In this document: piece after piece, positions 27,227 through 30,792 of the stretch
How positions within the stretch are numbered: the first letter of the stretch is position 1
Layout: each line of letters opens with the position of its first letter
Assembly (NCBI GenBank): GCA_963771355.1
Contig: CAVYTA010000006.1
Span: 1,664,001-1,728,000, forward strand
Source: an uncultured Candidatus Rokubacteria bacterium
GTDB lineage: Bacteria > Methylomirabilota > Methylomirabilia > Rokubacteriales > CSP1-6
Direction: 5' to 3'
Length of the DNA: 64,000 nucleotides
Position numbers and translations under genes: made by a program
Notes under the pieces: model-generated
What the model saw: the letters and a program-made list of their open reading frames with translations, nothing else
Database searches by the model: none
Told to the model about the DNA's origin: nothing

Positions 27227-27934
27227 GTGAGCTCGCCAGAGTCCGATCCTCCTCCCGTCCGGGCGCGGCGGCGTCCCACACGCCGGGGCCCCTCCCTCCT
27301 CGTGCAGGCCGTCCTCGTCACCGCGGTCATCGTCGCGATCCTGGCGGCCTGTCTGGTCTGGGACCCAATCTTCGTCAGCCTGCTCGTGTCGGAGGATTCG
27401 CCGGTGGAAGCGGTCCAGGCCGTCCTGCTCGGGCTGGCCCTGGCCCTCTGCCTGGTGCGCTGGCGGCGTCTCGTCGCGGTTGGCCTCTCCGCCGCGTCGG
27501 AGGTCATCCTCGCCGTGGGCTTCTTCATCCTGATCGCGGGCGAGATCGAGCTGTGGCAGCGCGTGCTGGGCTCCAGCATGACCTTCCGCCACACCTTCCG
27601 TCAGCCGCCGGCGCTCTTTGCCCTCTGGCTCGCGCTCTACGCGCTGATGCTGGCGGCGATGGTGCTCCTCGCCTTCTACGTCCTGCGGCGGCGCGTGCCG
27701 CTCTGGCGCTGGGGGCGCGCCGCACTGCGGACGGACTGGGGGCGGCTCCTGGTGTTCGCGGTCGCCCTGCTGGTTCTCACCGAGGTGTTCGAGCGTCGCC
27801 TGAACCGCATCCTGCCCACGGTGATGCCCAAGAGCACGCTGGAGGAGACCCTCGAGCTGATCGCGGGAGCCTACGCCGTCCTCGCCCTCATCGAGCGCGA
27901 GCGGGTGGAGCCGGTCAAGCCCGCCGACACCTAG
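27227..27934 (+). CDS. Hypothetical multi-pass membrane protein
   Basis: About 6 hydrophobic segments with acidic motifs SEDSPVE, GEIELWQR, EETLELI; possible promoter TTGAGC-18-TAACTT upstream. Confidence 0.7.
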   Translation: MSSPESDPPPVRARRRPTRRGPSLLVQAVLVTAVIVAILAACLVWDPIFVSLLVSEDSPVEAVQAVLLGLALALCLVRWRRLVAVGLSAASEVILAVGFFILIAGEIELWQRVLGSSMTFRHTFRQPPALFALWLALYALMLAAMVLLAFYVLRRRVPLWRWGRAALRTDWGRLLVFAVALLVLTEVFERRLNRILPTVMPKSTLEETLELIAGAYAVLALIERERVEPVKPADT

Positions 27935-30792
27935 GGCCGCCGTAGCGGCAGCGACCAGGACTGGCGGGCGAGGAACCGATCGATGCCGCTCCGGCCCTCC
28001 GCGGACGCCACCGCGAGGCCGAACTGACGCGCCTCGAATGCGAGCCCGGCCTCGAGGCCCTCGGTGAGCCCCACCCGGACCGCCTCCAGGATGGCGCGGG
28101 CGGGGGCCTCCCGCGGGATCGCGTCGTGATGCGCGAGGAGGCGGCGGAGCTCTCCGTCCGCGGCGAGGTCGGGATAGGGCGAGAGCCGCGCGAGGTCACG
28201 TCCCTCCCCGAGCGGTGACCAGCGCGTGCCCGTCCACTCGCCGAGCGCGATGCGACGGGCGATCCCCAGCGCGTGGGACAGGGCGTCCGCGGGCGCGAGC
28301 TCGTCCACCAGGCCGAGCGCCCGCGCGGCCTCCGCCCCACGCCGGCGCCCGTCCAGCAGCATCACCAGCGCGTCGAGGAGGGCCGCGCGATCGGGGCCAC
28401 CGGCCTCGCGCACCCGGCGCAGCGCCAGCCGCGGCAGCGACTGGGTGCCCCCGAACCCCGGCAGGACGTGGAGGTTGATCTCGGGCTGCCCCCACTCGGC
28501 GCGCGCGGCGCCCACGCGCCACGCACAAGCCATCTGGAGCTCGTTCCCGCCCCCCAGCGCATAGCCGTCCACCGCCGCCACCACGGGCGCGCGCAGCCGG
28601 GCGATGCGGATCAACATCCGCTGCACCCGGACGGTGAACTCCTCCACCTCGGCGGGGCCGGCAAACGCGCGCAACGCGCGGATGTCGGCGCCCGCCACGA
28701 ACATGGTCCCCGACCCCGCCAGCACCGCCGCCCGCACTCGCGGCTCGCCCTCGATCGCCTCCACCGCTCGCTCGAGGTCCTCGAGCACGGTCAGGCCGAT
28801 GGCATTGGCGGGGGGCGAGTCCACCGTGATCAGCGCGACGAGGTCTTCAGCGCCCGGGCGGACCGGATCGAGGCGCAGGCGGACGGTGGCCCCGTCGAGG
28901 TAGCGCGAGCCCCAGGCGGTGTAGATTTCACGGGCTCTCCGGGCCGTGTCGAGCGAGGACCTCGCGCCCACGCGAACCGACAAGGTCCCCGCATGGCGGT
29001 TCTCGTGGATGAGCTGATGGCACTCGGCGAGCGCCGTCCAGTCGTGCACCACGGGCGCGTGCGGCGGGAGCGCGCCCGCGTCGAGCAGCCGCACCACCTC
29101 CTCCGCCTGGTGGGCGTTGGAGAGATGAGAGCCGAGCACCGCGAAGGTCGGAAAGAGGACGCGCTTCTCGTGCATCCACACGTTCGGCGCGTAGAAGGAG
29201 AAGCGCCGGCCCTCGGTGGCCTCGACGAAGACCACCCGCCCCGTGAAGGGGCGCGCCAGGAAGGTGCTGATCCCCAGGGTGTCCTGGCCGGCCCGCTCCA
29301 CCACCAGATCGGGATTGCCGCGCGGATTGTCGGCGGTGGCGAGGAGACGGCCCACCGCGAGACCGAACGGCTTGAGCGTGGTGTCCTGATAGGCGCGATA
29401 GCCGTCGAGGTCCACGTCGTAGTCGGGCATCGCGTCCGGCCAGTGGAAGGTGCCGGCGCGCGCCAGCGTCTCCAGGCTGACCACGCCCGACACGGCATGC
29501 GCGGCCTTGACGCGCGCGGCCTGGCGGTCGCGGCAACAGGCGACCACCACGCGCGCGCCGGCGGCCAGGGCCGCCACCGTCACCGCCTCCGCCACGGGAT
29601 CGTCGTCGCCGCCATCCTCCAGTCCCCAGTAGACGAGCACGCCCTCGCGGGGCCGCAGGTCGGCGCGCCGGAGCATCTCGGCCGGCGCGGCTGCGCCCGC
29701 CTTGCCGAGGAAGGTCAGCGTGTAGCCGCTGGTGGCGCCGTAGAAGACGAGCCGGCCGCCCGGCCCGAGGAGATCGACCATGCGGGCGAAGAGATCGCGG
29801 CCCACCGAGGAGACGACCACGTCCATTGGACCGCCTGGGGTCGCGCCGGAGGTCGCAGCGGGCGGACCGCCGCCCTGCCTATCGAGCACGCGCGCGCGGA
29901 AGGCCTCACCGCGGCGCCGCCACTCCGCACGCTCGGCGGCCGCCCGCGGGACCGGCGTGAACACGCCCTCCATACCCGGCGCCTTGCGATTGACATAGTC
30001 GTGGCCGCCCCCGGCGAGGACCAGCCGGCCCTTGTCCTCGGTGGAGACAAGCCCGGTCACGCGCGCGCCGCGCAGGGCGGCCACCGCGACGGCATGGATG
30101 CCGGTGCCGCCGGCCGCGCCTTCCACGAACACCCGCTCGCCCGGCTGCACGCGCGCCACGTCGTACAGCGCCTTGTACACCGTCTCCAGGTCCAGCATGA
30201 AGGCGGAGCCCTCGGGGAGCGTGAGCCGCTCCGTGTGGACGAGCCACTGCGGCGCCTGCCCGCGGACGAACTGGGCGAAGGAGCCGTCCGGCGTCTCGTA
30301 GCCCTGGATCTTGAAGTCGGCGTGCATCGGATCCTCGCCGGCCCGCGGCGAGAGGAGGTTGGACACCCCGGGATAGAGCACCCGGAGCTCGCCCACGCGG
30401 AGCCGTCCCTCGCGCGCCACCTCGCTCCCCAGCGCGGCGACCAGCGCCACCGCGCCCGAGCCCGGCACGTGGAGATCCCGATCGTGAAGGTCGAACACGG
30501 AGATGGGGACGCCGCGGGCGGCGAAGATGGTGTTGTAGGTGAGGCCCGCGTAGAGTACATAGCCCAGTGCCTCGGTGGGGCCGATCTCGGGCACCGGCGT
30601 CACCACGGGCCGCAGCGCGACGGCGGGCTCGCCGTGCGCGGGCCGGCCCCAGCGGTCCTTCACCACCGCCCACACCTCGTGGAGCACGGGAATGGGGTCG
30701 AGCCCCGGGCGGAAGGGCGCCCCCACCGGCAGCGTACCCTCGGCTCCCCGGCGCCACCAGCGCTCGTCCACTTCCTTCGGTTCACCCGACAT
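27931..30792 (-). CDS. Propionyl-CoA-synthase-like enoyl-CoA (carboxy)reductase fused to a C-terminal enoyl-CoA hydratase/dehydratase
   Basis: MDR/CCR-like domain (QGYETPDGSFAQF, EGAAGGTG, FYGATSGY, DNPRGNPDLVVERAG, PFTGRVVF, GSHLSNA), then a crotonase domain (PPANA, FVAGADI, GGGNELQMAC, GQPEINL..PGFGGTQ). ATG 30792 follows AAGGA. Confidence 0.85.
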   Translation of the reverse strand: MSGEPKEVDERWWRRGAEGTLPVGAPFRPGLDPIPVLHEVWAVVKDRWGRPAHGEPAVALRPVVTPVPEIGPTEALGYVLYAGLTYNTIFAARGVPISVFDLHDRDLHVPGSGAVALVAALGSEVAREGRLRVGELRVLYPGVSNLLSPRAGEDPMHADFKIQGYETPDGSFAQFVRGQAPQWLVHTERLTLPEGSAFMLDLETVYKALYDVARVQPGERVFVEGAAGGTGIHAVAVAALRGARVTGLVSTEDKGRLVLAGGGHDYVNRKAPGMEGVFTPVPRAAAERAEWRRRGEAFRARVLDRQGGGPPAATSGATPGGPMDVVVSSVGRDLFARMVDLLGPGGRLVFYGATSGYTLTFLGKAGAAAPAEMLRRADLRPREGVLVYWGLEDGGDDDPVAEAVTVAALAAGARVVVACCRDRQAARVKAAHAVSGVVSLETLARAGTFHWPDAMPDYDVDLDGYRAYQDTTLKPFGLAVGRLLATADNPRGNPDLVVERAGQDTLGISTFLARPFTGRVVFVEATEGRRFSFYAPNVWMHEKRVLFPTFAVLGSHLSNAHQAEEVVRLLDAGALPPHAPVVHDWTALAECHQLIHENRHAGTLSVRVGARSSLDTARRAREIYTAWGSRYLDGATVRLRLDPVRPGAEDLVALITVDSPPANAIGLTVLEDLERAVEAIEGEPRVRAAVLAGSGTMFVAGADIRALRAFAGPAEVEEFTVRVQRMLIRIARLRAPVVAAVDGYALGGGNELQMACAWRVGAARAEWGQPEINLHVLPGFGGTQSLPRLALRRVREAGGPDRAALLDALVMLLDGRRRGAEAARALGLVDELAPADALSHALGIARRIALGEWTGTRWSPLGEGRDLARLSPYPDLAADGELRRLLAHHDAIPREAPARAILEAVRVGLTEGLEAGLAFEARQFGLAVASAEGRSGIDRFLARQSWSLPLRRP

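Follow-up and report, generated by a model that had tools for sequence, protein, structure and literature searches.

A rearranged, ligase-less propionyl-CoA synthase-type gene of Rokubacteria is likely a natural version of a carboxylase made so far only by engineering

A 64,000-nucleotide stretch of an uncultured Candidatus Rokubacteria genome (the window) encodes a fusion of a reductase and a dehydratase, both related to propionyl-CoA synthase (PCS). Judging from its sequence, the gene is likely a natural version of a carboxylase that has so far been made only by engineering. We regard it as an even call that the enzyme would convert 3-hydroxypropionyl-CoA through acrylyl-CoA to methylmalonyl-CoA with NADPH and CO2, replacing crotonyl-CoA carboxylase/reductase (Ccr), which is absent from its genomes. 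PCS itself forms propionyl-CoA and sequesters acrylyl-CoA in a closed chamber. Homologs are currently annotated in databases as "enoyl-CoA hydratase-related protein" or PCS. No report of this enzyme was found in the literature searched; homologs of this kind might be listed in the supplements to the original PCS publications (JACS 2019, Nat Chem Biol 2018).

The frame is open for 953 amino acids. All motifs quoted in the preliminary description are present, and YNT, GYET, WM and GSH stand exactly where it had placed them. The start codon is separated from the preceding stop by 23 nt (Table 1). A promoter and terminator scan gave nothing exceeding shuffled sequences. The best PDB match is the PCS of Erythrobacter sp. 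NAP1 (6eqo), in two blocks in swapped order. Residues 19-607 match 6eqo 1232-1820, the reductase (481 bits), and residues 643-952 match 6eqo 899-1211, the dehydratase (155 bits). The two ends of the protein therefore lie on either side of the linker that joins dehydratase and reductase in PCS. Pfam found MDR and ECH domains only in the 953-aa protein, and no AMP-binding (acyl-CoA ligase) domain. These matches bear out three earlier suggestions: that both domains are of PCS ancestry, that their order is reversed and that the ligase has been lost.

A search for the reductase-dehydratase order elsewhere found it in 120/120 of the best 120 of 296 homologs (the window's protein included), so the layout is not an assembly artefact. 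The order recurs at 37 of 39 genome loci, the remaining two being canonical PCS. The reductase precedes the dehydratase in all 121 family members, whereas the order is opposite in 119/119 canonical PCS. Identity to PCS (Erythrobacter; Chloroflexus-type) is only ~45%. The missing ligase and the variable neighbourhood might suggest that a three-domain enzyme is decaying here, or that the assembly is at fault, but this is very improbable, as the frame is intact and the catalytic residues are invariant (121/121) among members that share 67-90% identity across at least 17 genera.

Table 1. Features of the reductase-dehydratase gene, in coordinates of the window.
Feature	Position	Strand	Basis
Whole gene, 953 aa (P0001), reductase-dehydratase fusion without ligase	27931..30792	-	open frame, PDB and Pfam matches
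AAGGA, ribosome-binding-site-like, 7 nt ahead of ATG 30792	30800..30804	-	sequence reading; homologs align from residue 1
PCS-type MDR enoyl-CoA reductase/carboxylase domain, aa 19-607 (activity predicted)	28972..30738	-	6eqo, TIGR01751, structure match
Y86-N87-T88; N87 = Ccr Asn81 (CO2 anchor), T88 = Ccr Thr82 = PCS Asp1302	30529..30537	-	alignment; PMC6628652
S112 = Ccr Ser119 (second shell)	30457..30459	-	alignment
G164-Y165-E166-T167; Y165 = Ccr Phe170, E166 = Ccr Glu171	30292..30303	-	alignment
D201-L202-E203-T204, acidic family-specific residues by conserved MDR Thr	30181..30192	-	alignment
Nucleotide-binding glycine loop, aa 224-231	30100..30123	-	alignment
Second, duplicated Rossmann/oligomerisation domain (the "insertion"), aa 368-546	29155..29691	-	hhalign
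W539-M540; M540 = Ccr Met356 = PCS Thr1753	29173..29178	-	alignment
G554-S555-H556; H556 = Ccr His365	29125..29133	-	alignment
PCS-type crotonase (predicted dehydratase) domain with helical extension, aa 643-952	27937..28866	-	6eqo 899-1211
Catalytic E751	28540-28542	-	alignment
Catalytic E771	28480-28482	-	alignment

The AlphaFold2 model of the protein has a mean pLDDT of 88.6 and a pTM of 0.87; loop 145-164, adjoining the active site, is below 50 in pLDDT. Model residues 8-628 align to 6eqo_B 1215-1840 (Z 45.5, rmsd 2.2, 600 residues), and structure searches matched the reductase alone to 6eqo. The region first described as an insertion is a duplication: hhalign aligns residues 205-364 with 368-546 (probability 95%, E 3.8e-8), and Ccr matches each of the two Rossmann copies. 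The PCS reductase likewise contains the duplicated Rossmann domain. Ccr/Ecr (TIGR01751; K. setae 6owe, 4gi2, AntE 4y0k) are more distant, with 27-29% identity and a TIGR01751 score of 202.5 bits, under the cut-off of 378.55. Ccr is a stand-alone subunit of 410-450 aa, whereas the family has the internal duplication in place of a partner subunit, plus the fused dehydratase. We infer that the duplicated domain stands in for the Ccr partner subunit. It carries K474 (Ccr K296) and F511 (Ccr Y328), invariant in 81/81 rows, as well as M540; in the divergent L060/L061 group, this second copy is misaligned in one alignment. The glycine loop, together with S250-T251, K254 and R269, is typical of MDR enzymes that use NADPH.

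The dehydratase shares both its helical extension and its end motif with PCS. It scores higher against 6eqo (155 bits) than against the stand-alone 3-hydroxypropionyl-CoA dehydratase 5zai (112 bits). Both catalytic Glu residues are conserved in 121/121 family members.

Numbering was linked to K. setae Ccr through P0387, whose alignment to 6owe is gap-free. Alignment to the CO2 pocket of Ccr gave equivalents of N81, T82, S119, F/Y170, E171, M356 and H365, in addition to K296 and Y/F328. N87, S112, Y165, E166, H556 and M540 are each present in 121/121 family members. Ccr F170Y carboxylates fully (PMC6628652). The residues of the proposed CCR-type signature are thus present and equivalent, but the four residues of the pocket do not by themselves mark a carboxylase, because canonical PCS also carries them (N, Y and H in 119/119, E in 113/119). 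The carboxylation activity of canonical PCS is almost nil (PMC7918591).

Counting along the 6eqo alignment places D1302 opposite T88 and T1753 opposite M540, as the preliminary description had stated. Position 88 is Thr in 118 and Gly in 3 of the 121 family members, and Asp in 119/119 canonical PCS; the 24 Ccr-like rows have N, G, T or S there, with Asp absent from 24/24. Met540 is invariant in the family (121/121) but also natural in 38 of 119 canonical PCS, the other 81 having Thr, so that the Met after Trp is correctly located but is not a clean marker. At the level of sequence, only the position after the Asn (Thr/Gly versus Asp) cleanly separates the family from canonical PCS. K. setae Ccr T82D retains almost full carboxylation but is ~50-fold slower (PMC6628652). 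Thr versus Asp is therefore no on/off switch.

It is possible, though on balance unlikely, that the enzyme is a ligase-less PCS which dehydrates 3-hydroxypropionyl-CoA and plainly reduces acrylyl-CoA to propionyl-CoA for detoxification or assimilation, with carboxylation left to propionyl-CoA carboxylase and the Ccr-like residues being ancestral leftovers. The reductase tree agrees with this, as the family branches with PCS and not with Ccr (99 SH-aLRT; P0307, P0314, P0362 and P0289, fragmentary or degenerate, were left out). The root of this tree depends on long branches, and canonical PCS is not shown as the ancestor. Of 41 columns discriminating Ccr from PCS, 21 are PCS-like in the family, 11 resemble Ccr and 9 have a state of their own. 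Ccr N79, W84, D120 and W168 are not present in the family, which has T85, F90, G113 and Q163. The acidic D201 and E203, close to the conserved Thr, also favour plain reduction and could serve as proton donors. Both are invariant in 121/121 family members, PCS has N (117/119) and G (119/119), and the commonest residues of the 24 Ccr-like rows include neither D at position 201 nor E at position 203. Against plain reduction, the PCS-invariant Asp (119/119) is missing from 121/121 family members, and the Ccr-like states are concentrated at the active site. Near-site states common to the family and Ccr but absent from PCS are G83, Y86, A114, F172, G228, K254, K543 and S555.

The genomic distribution provides an independent argument for the carboxylase, as the enzyme and canonical Ccr are nearly mutually exclusive and occupy complementary sets of genomes. 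In the host family (159 genomes), the enzyme is present in 46, canonical Ccr (TIGR01751 over cut-off) in 67, with high-scoring fragments in 8 more, and neither gene in 40. Both genes were observed in 2 genomes, versus ~22 expected by chance, counts that are inflated by kin. One of these two, G209, carries a three-domain form. When 61 genomes are placed on a DnaB tree, those with one state are intermixed with those of the other, and the starred branches force at least five changes of each label. Independent pairs on this tree are 3 for, 0 against and 1 tied (p 0.25, not significant; p 0.5 with the neither-gene genomes added). A ligase-LLM-ECH-QOR operon houses Ccr in relatives (L050, L052). The host genome, G000, retains this operon minus Ccr, with an ECH-QOR gap of 12 nt, and the Ccr-less operon is also seen in some genomes with neither gene. 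The Rokubacterial Ccr is atypical in having Gln at Glu171. The exclusion reflects a common job, the consumption of enoyl-CoA, and not necessarily carboxylation. Removal of acrylyl-CoA by either route could render Ccr dispensable, as plain reduction would have it, but the exclusion is specifically with a carboxylase family.

Rare three-domain members have the order ligase-reductase-dehydratase. This is not a circular permutation of the ligase-dehydratase-reductase order of PCS, and the circular permutation suggested earlier fits the two-domain module only. The family-type ligase occurs in 3 of 159 genomes, fused every time, and is absent from G000; it is missing in 43 of the 46 genomes with the enzyme. 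Where present, it is ~200 aa shorter than the PCS ligase. A search for a split ligase elsewhere in the genome found none, the best matches being ACS and an ACS-like ligase at ~39%. In three-domain members, the ligase carries the pocket motifs of the PCS ligase in 5/5 rows, as do 8/8 PCS rows, unlike the ACS of the genome. Such a PCS-type ligase indicates C3 substrates.

The preliminary description had allowed C3 or C4 substrates, and C3 is now favoured. It is improbable that the enzyme is a C4 or promiscuous dehydratase/carboxylase that converts 3-hydroxybutyryl-CoA via crotonyl-CoA to ethylmalonyl-CoA, or acts on another short enoyl-CoA, in an unconventional ethylmalonyl-CoA route. The enzyme does take the place of a crotonyl-CoA carboxylase family member, and loss of the C3 ligase from most genomes with the enzyme could signal a substrate shift. 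Genes of the 2-hydroxyisobutyryl- and isobutyryl-CoA-mutase type, typed by motif, are present and presumably supply C4 esters. In G000 and in 6 of 10 other genomes (G072, G093, G095, G128, G079 and G211), split mutases have a small residue or Pro at two positions of the pocket that we take to be determinants of ethylmalonyl-CoA mutase (Ecm). The PCS-type ligase of the family itself, however, speaks against C4, and no canonical Ecm (fused, MeaA-type) was recognised among the four mutases of G000. By motif, the mutases of G179 (with the enzyme, 100% complete) and G116 (with Ccr, 99% complete) are of the MCM, ICM and HCM types only. Candidates for a glyoxylate bypass, an isocitrate-lyase-like gene (under all cut-offs) and malate synthase, are also present.

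G000 holds genes of the methylmalonyl-CoA mutase (MCM) type and for the epimerase. A carboxyltransferase gene lies immediately upstream of the MCM gene, so that reduction followed by ATP-dependent carboxylation would give the same product, a point in favour of plain reduction. No AcuI/YhdH over cut-off was found in G000, which leaves the slot of an acrylyl-CoA reductase open and points in the same direction.

An autotrophic cycle, the 3-hydroxypropionate (3-HP) bi-cycle or a HOPAC-like one, was also considered. Malonyl-CoA reductase (Mcr) was sought by scanning the 5194 called genes for its motifs and by tblastn of Mcr-like pieces; the best E value was 4e-10 for an Mcr fragment, and no Mcr was found with these queries. 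The neighbourhood gave no clue to a pathway, as the 40 clustered loci (39 and the window) contain no acyl-CoA pathway genes. Two unrelated contexts were seen, an XDH-like/LLM/amidohydrolase/ABC cluster at ~6-7 of the 40 loci, and Meth_synt_2, NYN, LLM and oxoacid oxidoreductase at ~19. Four rhizosphere RNA runs from one study contain near-identical contigs with flat cover across 10 kb; contigs cannot show transcription, and a reading as expression was set aside.

In the proposed reaction to methylmalonyl-CoA, the crotonase domain (E751/E771) would take water off 3-hydroxypropionyl-CoA, and hydride transfer from NADPH would give the enolate. CO2 would be bound, and water excluded, by N87 (held by T88 and S112), Y165, E166 and H556, while M540 would enter the site from the duplicated domain, like the partner subunit in Ccr. 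The product would pass through the epimerase and MCM to succinyl-CoA, sparing the ATP that propionyl-CoA carboxylase would spend. The CoA ester would be supplied by another enzyme, such as a CoA-transferase, an acyl-CoA dehydrogenase or an unrelated ligase. In three-domain members, a single polypeptide may lead from 3-hydroxypropionate or acrylate in free form to methylmalonyl-CoA.

Bernhardsgrutter et al. reportedly obtained a carboxylating Erythrobacter PCS in 2019 by engineering D1302S/T1753M. Like that variant, the family is already carboxylase-type at these two positions, with natural Thr and Met. Unlike it, the family is natural, rearranged and ligase-less, and its carboxylation is only predicted. 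For the engineered PCS reductase domain, 97% carboxylation is given, with lowered activity (PMC10266731).

No CO2-fixing enzymes are known to be faster than reductive carboxylases. For the HOPAC cycle, a Pcs that carboxylates at a higher rate is named as a desired part (PMC10266731). If the carboxylase reading is true, a natural enzyme would be directly usable, and would be evolution's answer where engineering paid in rate. If the enzyme is a plain reductase, it marks the limits of carboxylase prediction from pocket residues. Tentatively, and with slightly under even confidence, we propose that Rokubacteria hold a natural carboxylating PCS lineage, in which one polypeptide would convert 3-hydroxypropionyl-CoA (in three-domain members, free 3-hydroxypropionate) and CO2 to methylmalonyl-CoA, with carboxylation without ATP. 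In abundant soil bacteria, this lineage would have taken the place of Ccr repeatedly, and the "sleeping" carboxylase of PCS would be a relic of a carboxylating ancestor. The enzyme would then represent a hidden step of heterotrophic CO2 assimilation in a widespread uncultured soil lineage.

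The gene is a single open frame, and every coordinate in the preliminary description proved exact. Pfam detects MDR (ADH_zinc_N, ADH_zinc_N_2) and crotonase domains in the 953-aa protein, and no ligase domain. Among solved structures, Erythrobacter propionyl-CoA synthase (PCS; 6eqo) comes closest. The two 6eqo matches indicate that the domain order is reversed relative to PCS, and that the enzyme termini flank the PCS linker on its two sides. They bear out, together with Pfam, the original reading of a PCS-type reductase followed by a dehydratase, with the ligase missing. The AlphaFold2 model (alignment of 81 sequences; pLDDT 88.6, pTM 0.87), a check proposed at that stage, matches the PCS reductase over 600 aligned residues (Z 45.5, rmsd 2.2).

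Features of the enzyme gene and its product
Feature	Position	Strand	Match or basis
Single open frame, 953 aa	window 27931-30792	-	ORF reading
AAGGA element	7 nt before ATG 30792	-	read from sequence
Reductase part	residues 19-607		6eqo 1232-1820, 481 bits
Dehydratase part	residues 643-952		6eqo 899-1211, 155 bits

Upstream on the same strand, window 30816-38458 (-) encodes DUF169, an ABC transporter ATPase, an amidohydrolase, AA_synth (PF06684), LLM, a xanthine-dehydrogenase-like large subunit and a 254-aa protein that matches no Pfam family. This cluster, which may serve N-heterocycle degradation, is kept beside the enzyme gene in only ~6 loci. ORFs at window 19330-21435 (+) resemble, by eye, a proteasome alpha subunit and Pup ligase; enzymes for glycogen branching and debranching come next.

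The protein search yielded 296 relatives of similar length. All of the best 120 of these (67-100% identity) show the reductase-before-dehydratase order, and four of the 120 carry an N-terminal ligase. In the search for longer proteins, the best 120 of 439 comprise one further three-domain member and 119 canonical PCS. The reductase-ECH order was also sought in other genomes, as initially suggested, and is present at 37 of 39 loci, with a fused ligase in one of the 37. These loci are mostly labelled Rokubacteria/Methylomirabilota; three otherwise labelled, at 73-89% identity, are probably misbinned. The cognate ligase is found in 3 of the 159 host-family genomes, fused each time, and never as a separate gene among the 159. 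Thus, the two-domain form has truly lost its ligase. The ligase pocket motifs of three-domain members (5/5 rows) are those of PCS ligases (8/8 rows) and unlike those of the ACS of the genome. This PCS-like pocket points to C3 acids as the likely substrate of the family.

In a tree built on 380 core columns common to 71 rows (4 others dropped), the family forms one clade (99) inside a larger PCS-type clade (99), with two- and three-domain members intermingled and Ccr (crotonyl-CoA carboxylase/reductase) outside. The ligase-reductase-dehydratase order is also observed in the nearest rows of the family (proteins P0247, P0250, P0329 and P0339), and the reductase-dehydratase order in a separate divergent group (loci L060 and L061, proteins P0357 and P0380). 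Such sharing indicates that the order is old and that the ancestor may have been something other than canonical PCS, in a tree whose root is not secure. The circular permutation proposed earlier is right about the termini, which lie at the PCS dehydratase/reductase linker, but the ligase-reductase-dehydratase members make the rearrangement a domain swap, not a circular permutation of whole PCS.

Several related fusions were observed. P0247 (6910 aa), P0250, P0329 and P0339 have more PCS-like layouts, ECH-ligase-reductase-ECH. P0357 (2552 aa; cluster members labelled Deltaproteobacteria), L060:4333-7008 and L061:218-3025 belong to the second, divergent reductase-dehydratase group and have the Ccr pocket residues. 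P0357 has an extra long multi-SDR tail, whose best PDB matches, only at E 4e-24, are the SDR chains 8hjw and 8hi4 (1219 and 1229 aa), which we take to be malonyl-CoA reductases; it is possibly a malonyl-CoA-to-C4 megafusion. P0300 (2640 aa, labelled Omnitrophota), P0277 and P0281 are reductases that have the duplicated Rossmann domain yet Ccr-like sites; they are stand-alone or fused with MaoC and HpcH/CitE domains, and branch away from PCS and Ccr alike. P0366 (2148 aa) and P0359 (1650 aa) combine HpcH/CitE, 3-hydroxyacyl-CoA dehydrogenase, Ccr-like, glyoxalase/epimerase-like and MaoC domains, and look like much of an ethylmalonyl-CoA pathway as a single chain.

The insertion in the reductase is a duplicated Rossmann domain: residues 368-546 repeat residues 205-364 (hhalign, probability 95%, E 3.8e-8), and Ccr aligns with each copy. 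In K. setae Ccr, substrate binding is shared between neighbouring subunits and the adenine site is formed by K296, R303 and Y328, according to excerpts of bioRxiv 10.1101/607101. The second copy retains K474 (= K296) and F511 (= Y328), both invariant (81/81 rows), and M540 (= M356); no in-register equivalent of R303 was found there in the alignment. Given the duplication and the retained partner-subunit residues, the most plausible view of the reductase is that of a pseudo-dimer within one chain, having a single active site.

The CO2 pocket of Ccr consists of N81, F170 (Tyr is tolerated), E171 and H365, with T82 and S119 in the second shell; in T82D and S119A, carboxylation is still almost complete but >50-fold slower (PMC6628652). 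With numbering set through P0387, a protein aligned without gaps to the K. setae structure 6owe, enzyme residues N87, T88, S112, Y165, E166, M540 and H556 correspond to N81, T82, S119, F170, E171, M356 and H365, which supports the proposed equivalence of the motifs. All except T88 are invariant in the family (121/121); position 88 is T in 118 and G in 3. All 119 canonical PCS share N, S, Y and H, and 113 of them E, so the four-residue set, although complete as described, does not tell the family from PCS. Position 88 does: it is D in 119/119 canonical PCS, whereas none of the 24 Ccr-like rows has D there, only N, G, T or S. Counted along the 6eqo alignment, PCS D1302 and T1753 stand opposite positions 88 and 540, which fits the D1302S/T1753M substitutions reportedly engineered into PCS. 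The Thr after Asn and the Met after Trp are thus located as first described, but position 540 separates only partly (T 81, M 38 among the 119 canonical PCS). Reviews (PMC7918591, PMC8252502, PMC10176493 and PMC10266731) describe PCS as nearly devoid of carboxylation activity and report its engineering towards that activity.

Other positions count against a clean carboxylase call. Among 41 columns where Ccr differs from PCS, the family is PCS-like in 21, Ccr-like in 11 and unique in 9. T85, F90, G113 and Q163 replace Ccr N, W, D and W, and D201/E203 are invariant in the family. Plain reduction, with which these columns are consistent, is a less likely reading than C3 carboxylation.

The enzyme-carrying genome G000 (completeness 99.8%) encodes four split B12 mutases, by their motifs presumably MCM, ICM, HCM and one atypical form. 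An epimerase is over cut-off, a carboxyltransferase lies immediately upstream of MCM, a malate synthase domain is present, and an isocitrate-lyase-like gene is under all cut-offs. In G000, no AcuI/YhdH is over cut-off and no Mcr was found with the queries used. Among 10 other genomes, G179 (enzyme) and G116 (Ccr) have what we take to be MCM, ICM and HCM types only. The mutase, Mcr and related data give no indication of an ethylmalonyl-CoA pathway or autotrophic cycle in G000, where the product that has an assured outlet is methylmalonyl-CoA; a reductase and PCC route is compatible with the same data. C4 or promiscuous carboxylation is improbable beside the PCS-type ligase pocket.

Atypical split mutases (L043, at G000:C1:73434-75014; L103, L084-L086, L101, L104, L105, L093) have small residues or Pro at the pocket positions where MCM has His and Asn, and are candidates for unconventional ethylmalonyl-CoA mutases. 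L093, in genome G051, lies within a Ccr-acyl-CoA dehydrogenase-mutase operon. The isocitrate-lyase-like protein (L064:9595-10563, G000:C6; 323 aa) is matched by ICL models in two stretches, passing no cut-off, and presumably resembles the short haloarchaeal type. The best match to an Mcr fragment, though a weak one, is an acyl-CoA-ligase/SDR fusion of 999 aa encoded at G000:C6:207654-210650.

The enzyme is found in 46 of the 159 host-family genomes (45, plus G215). The Ccr model TIGR01751 is over cut-off in 67, including two unpublished genomes (G076, G216; 65 without these), with high-scoring fragments in 8 more. Both genes occur in G136 and G209 only, versus ~22 expected; neither was found in 40. 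The Fisher value for exclusion (3.5e-13) is overstated, because related genomes are not independent. In the DnaB tree of 61 genomes picked to cover the genera (enzyme only 23, Ccr only 24, both 1, neither 13), the starred branches require each label to have changed 5 times or more. When independent pairs are drawn from the 48 genomes that carry at least one of the genes, 3 speak for exclusion, 0 against and 1 is tied (p 0.25); for all 61 genomes the split is 2.4 : 0.3 : 3.2 (p 0.5). The exclusion is repeated but not statistically significant on these pairs.

The Ccr of relatives sits within a ligase-LLM-(ECH)-Ccr-QOR operon (L048-L053). G000 retains this operon without Ccr, with an ECH-QOR gap of 12 nt. 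By listed coordinates, the Ccr-less ECH-QOR adjacency is found in 9 further enzyme-carrying genomes, and likewise in several of those in which neither gene was found. Reciprocal losses from an ancestor that had both genes, a state retained by G209, would explain the pattern most simply. Rokubacterial Ccr (L048:4418-5653, L050:5751-6989, L052:6615-7850) has Gln instead of Glu171, and its operon partners are an acyl-CoA ligase, an F420-dependent LLM oxidoreductase and a quinone-reductase-like MDR.

A full-text search of the openly accessible literature found no published description of this architecture or of a natural carboxylating PCS. The enzyme is neither a PCS, from which it differs in ligase, domain order and the Asp, nor a Ccr, from which it differs in score and layout. 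It is a real, conserved and apparently undescribed variant within the PCS/Ccr group. In the most likely reading, which has about an even chance, it would couple a dehydratase to carboxylation of the Ccr type, acting on C3 esters. The case for this predicted catalysis, built on the residue pattern and on the exclusion with Ccr, is strong and cheap to test.
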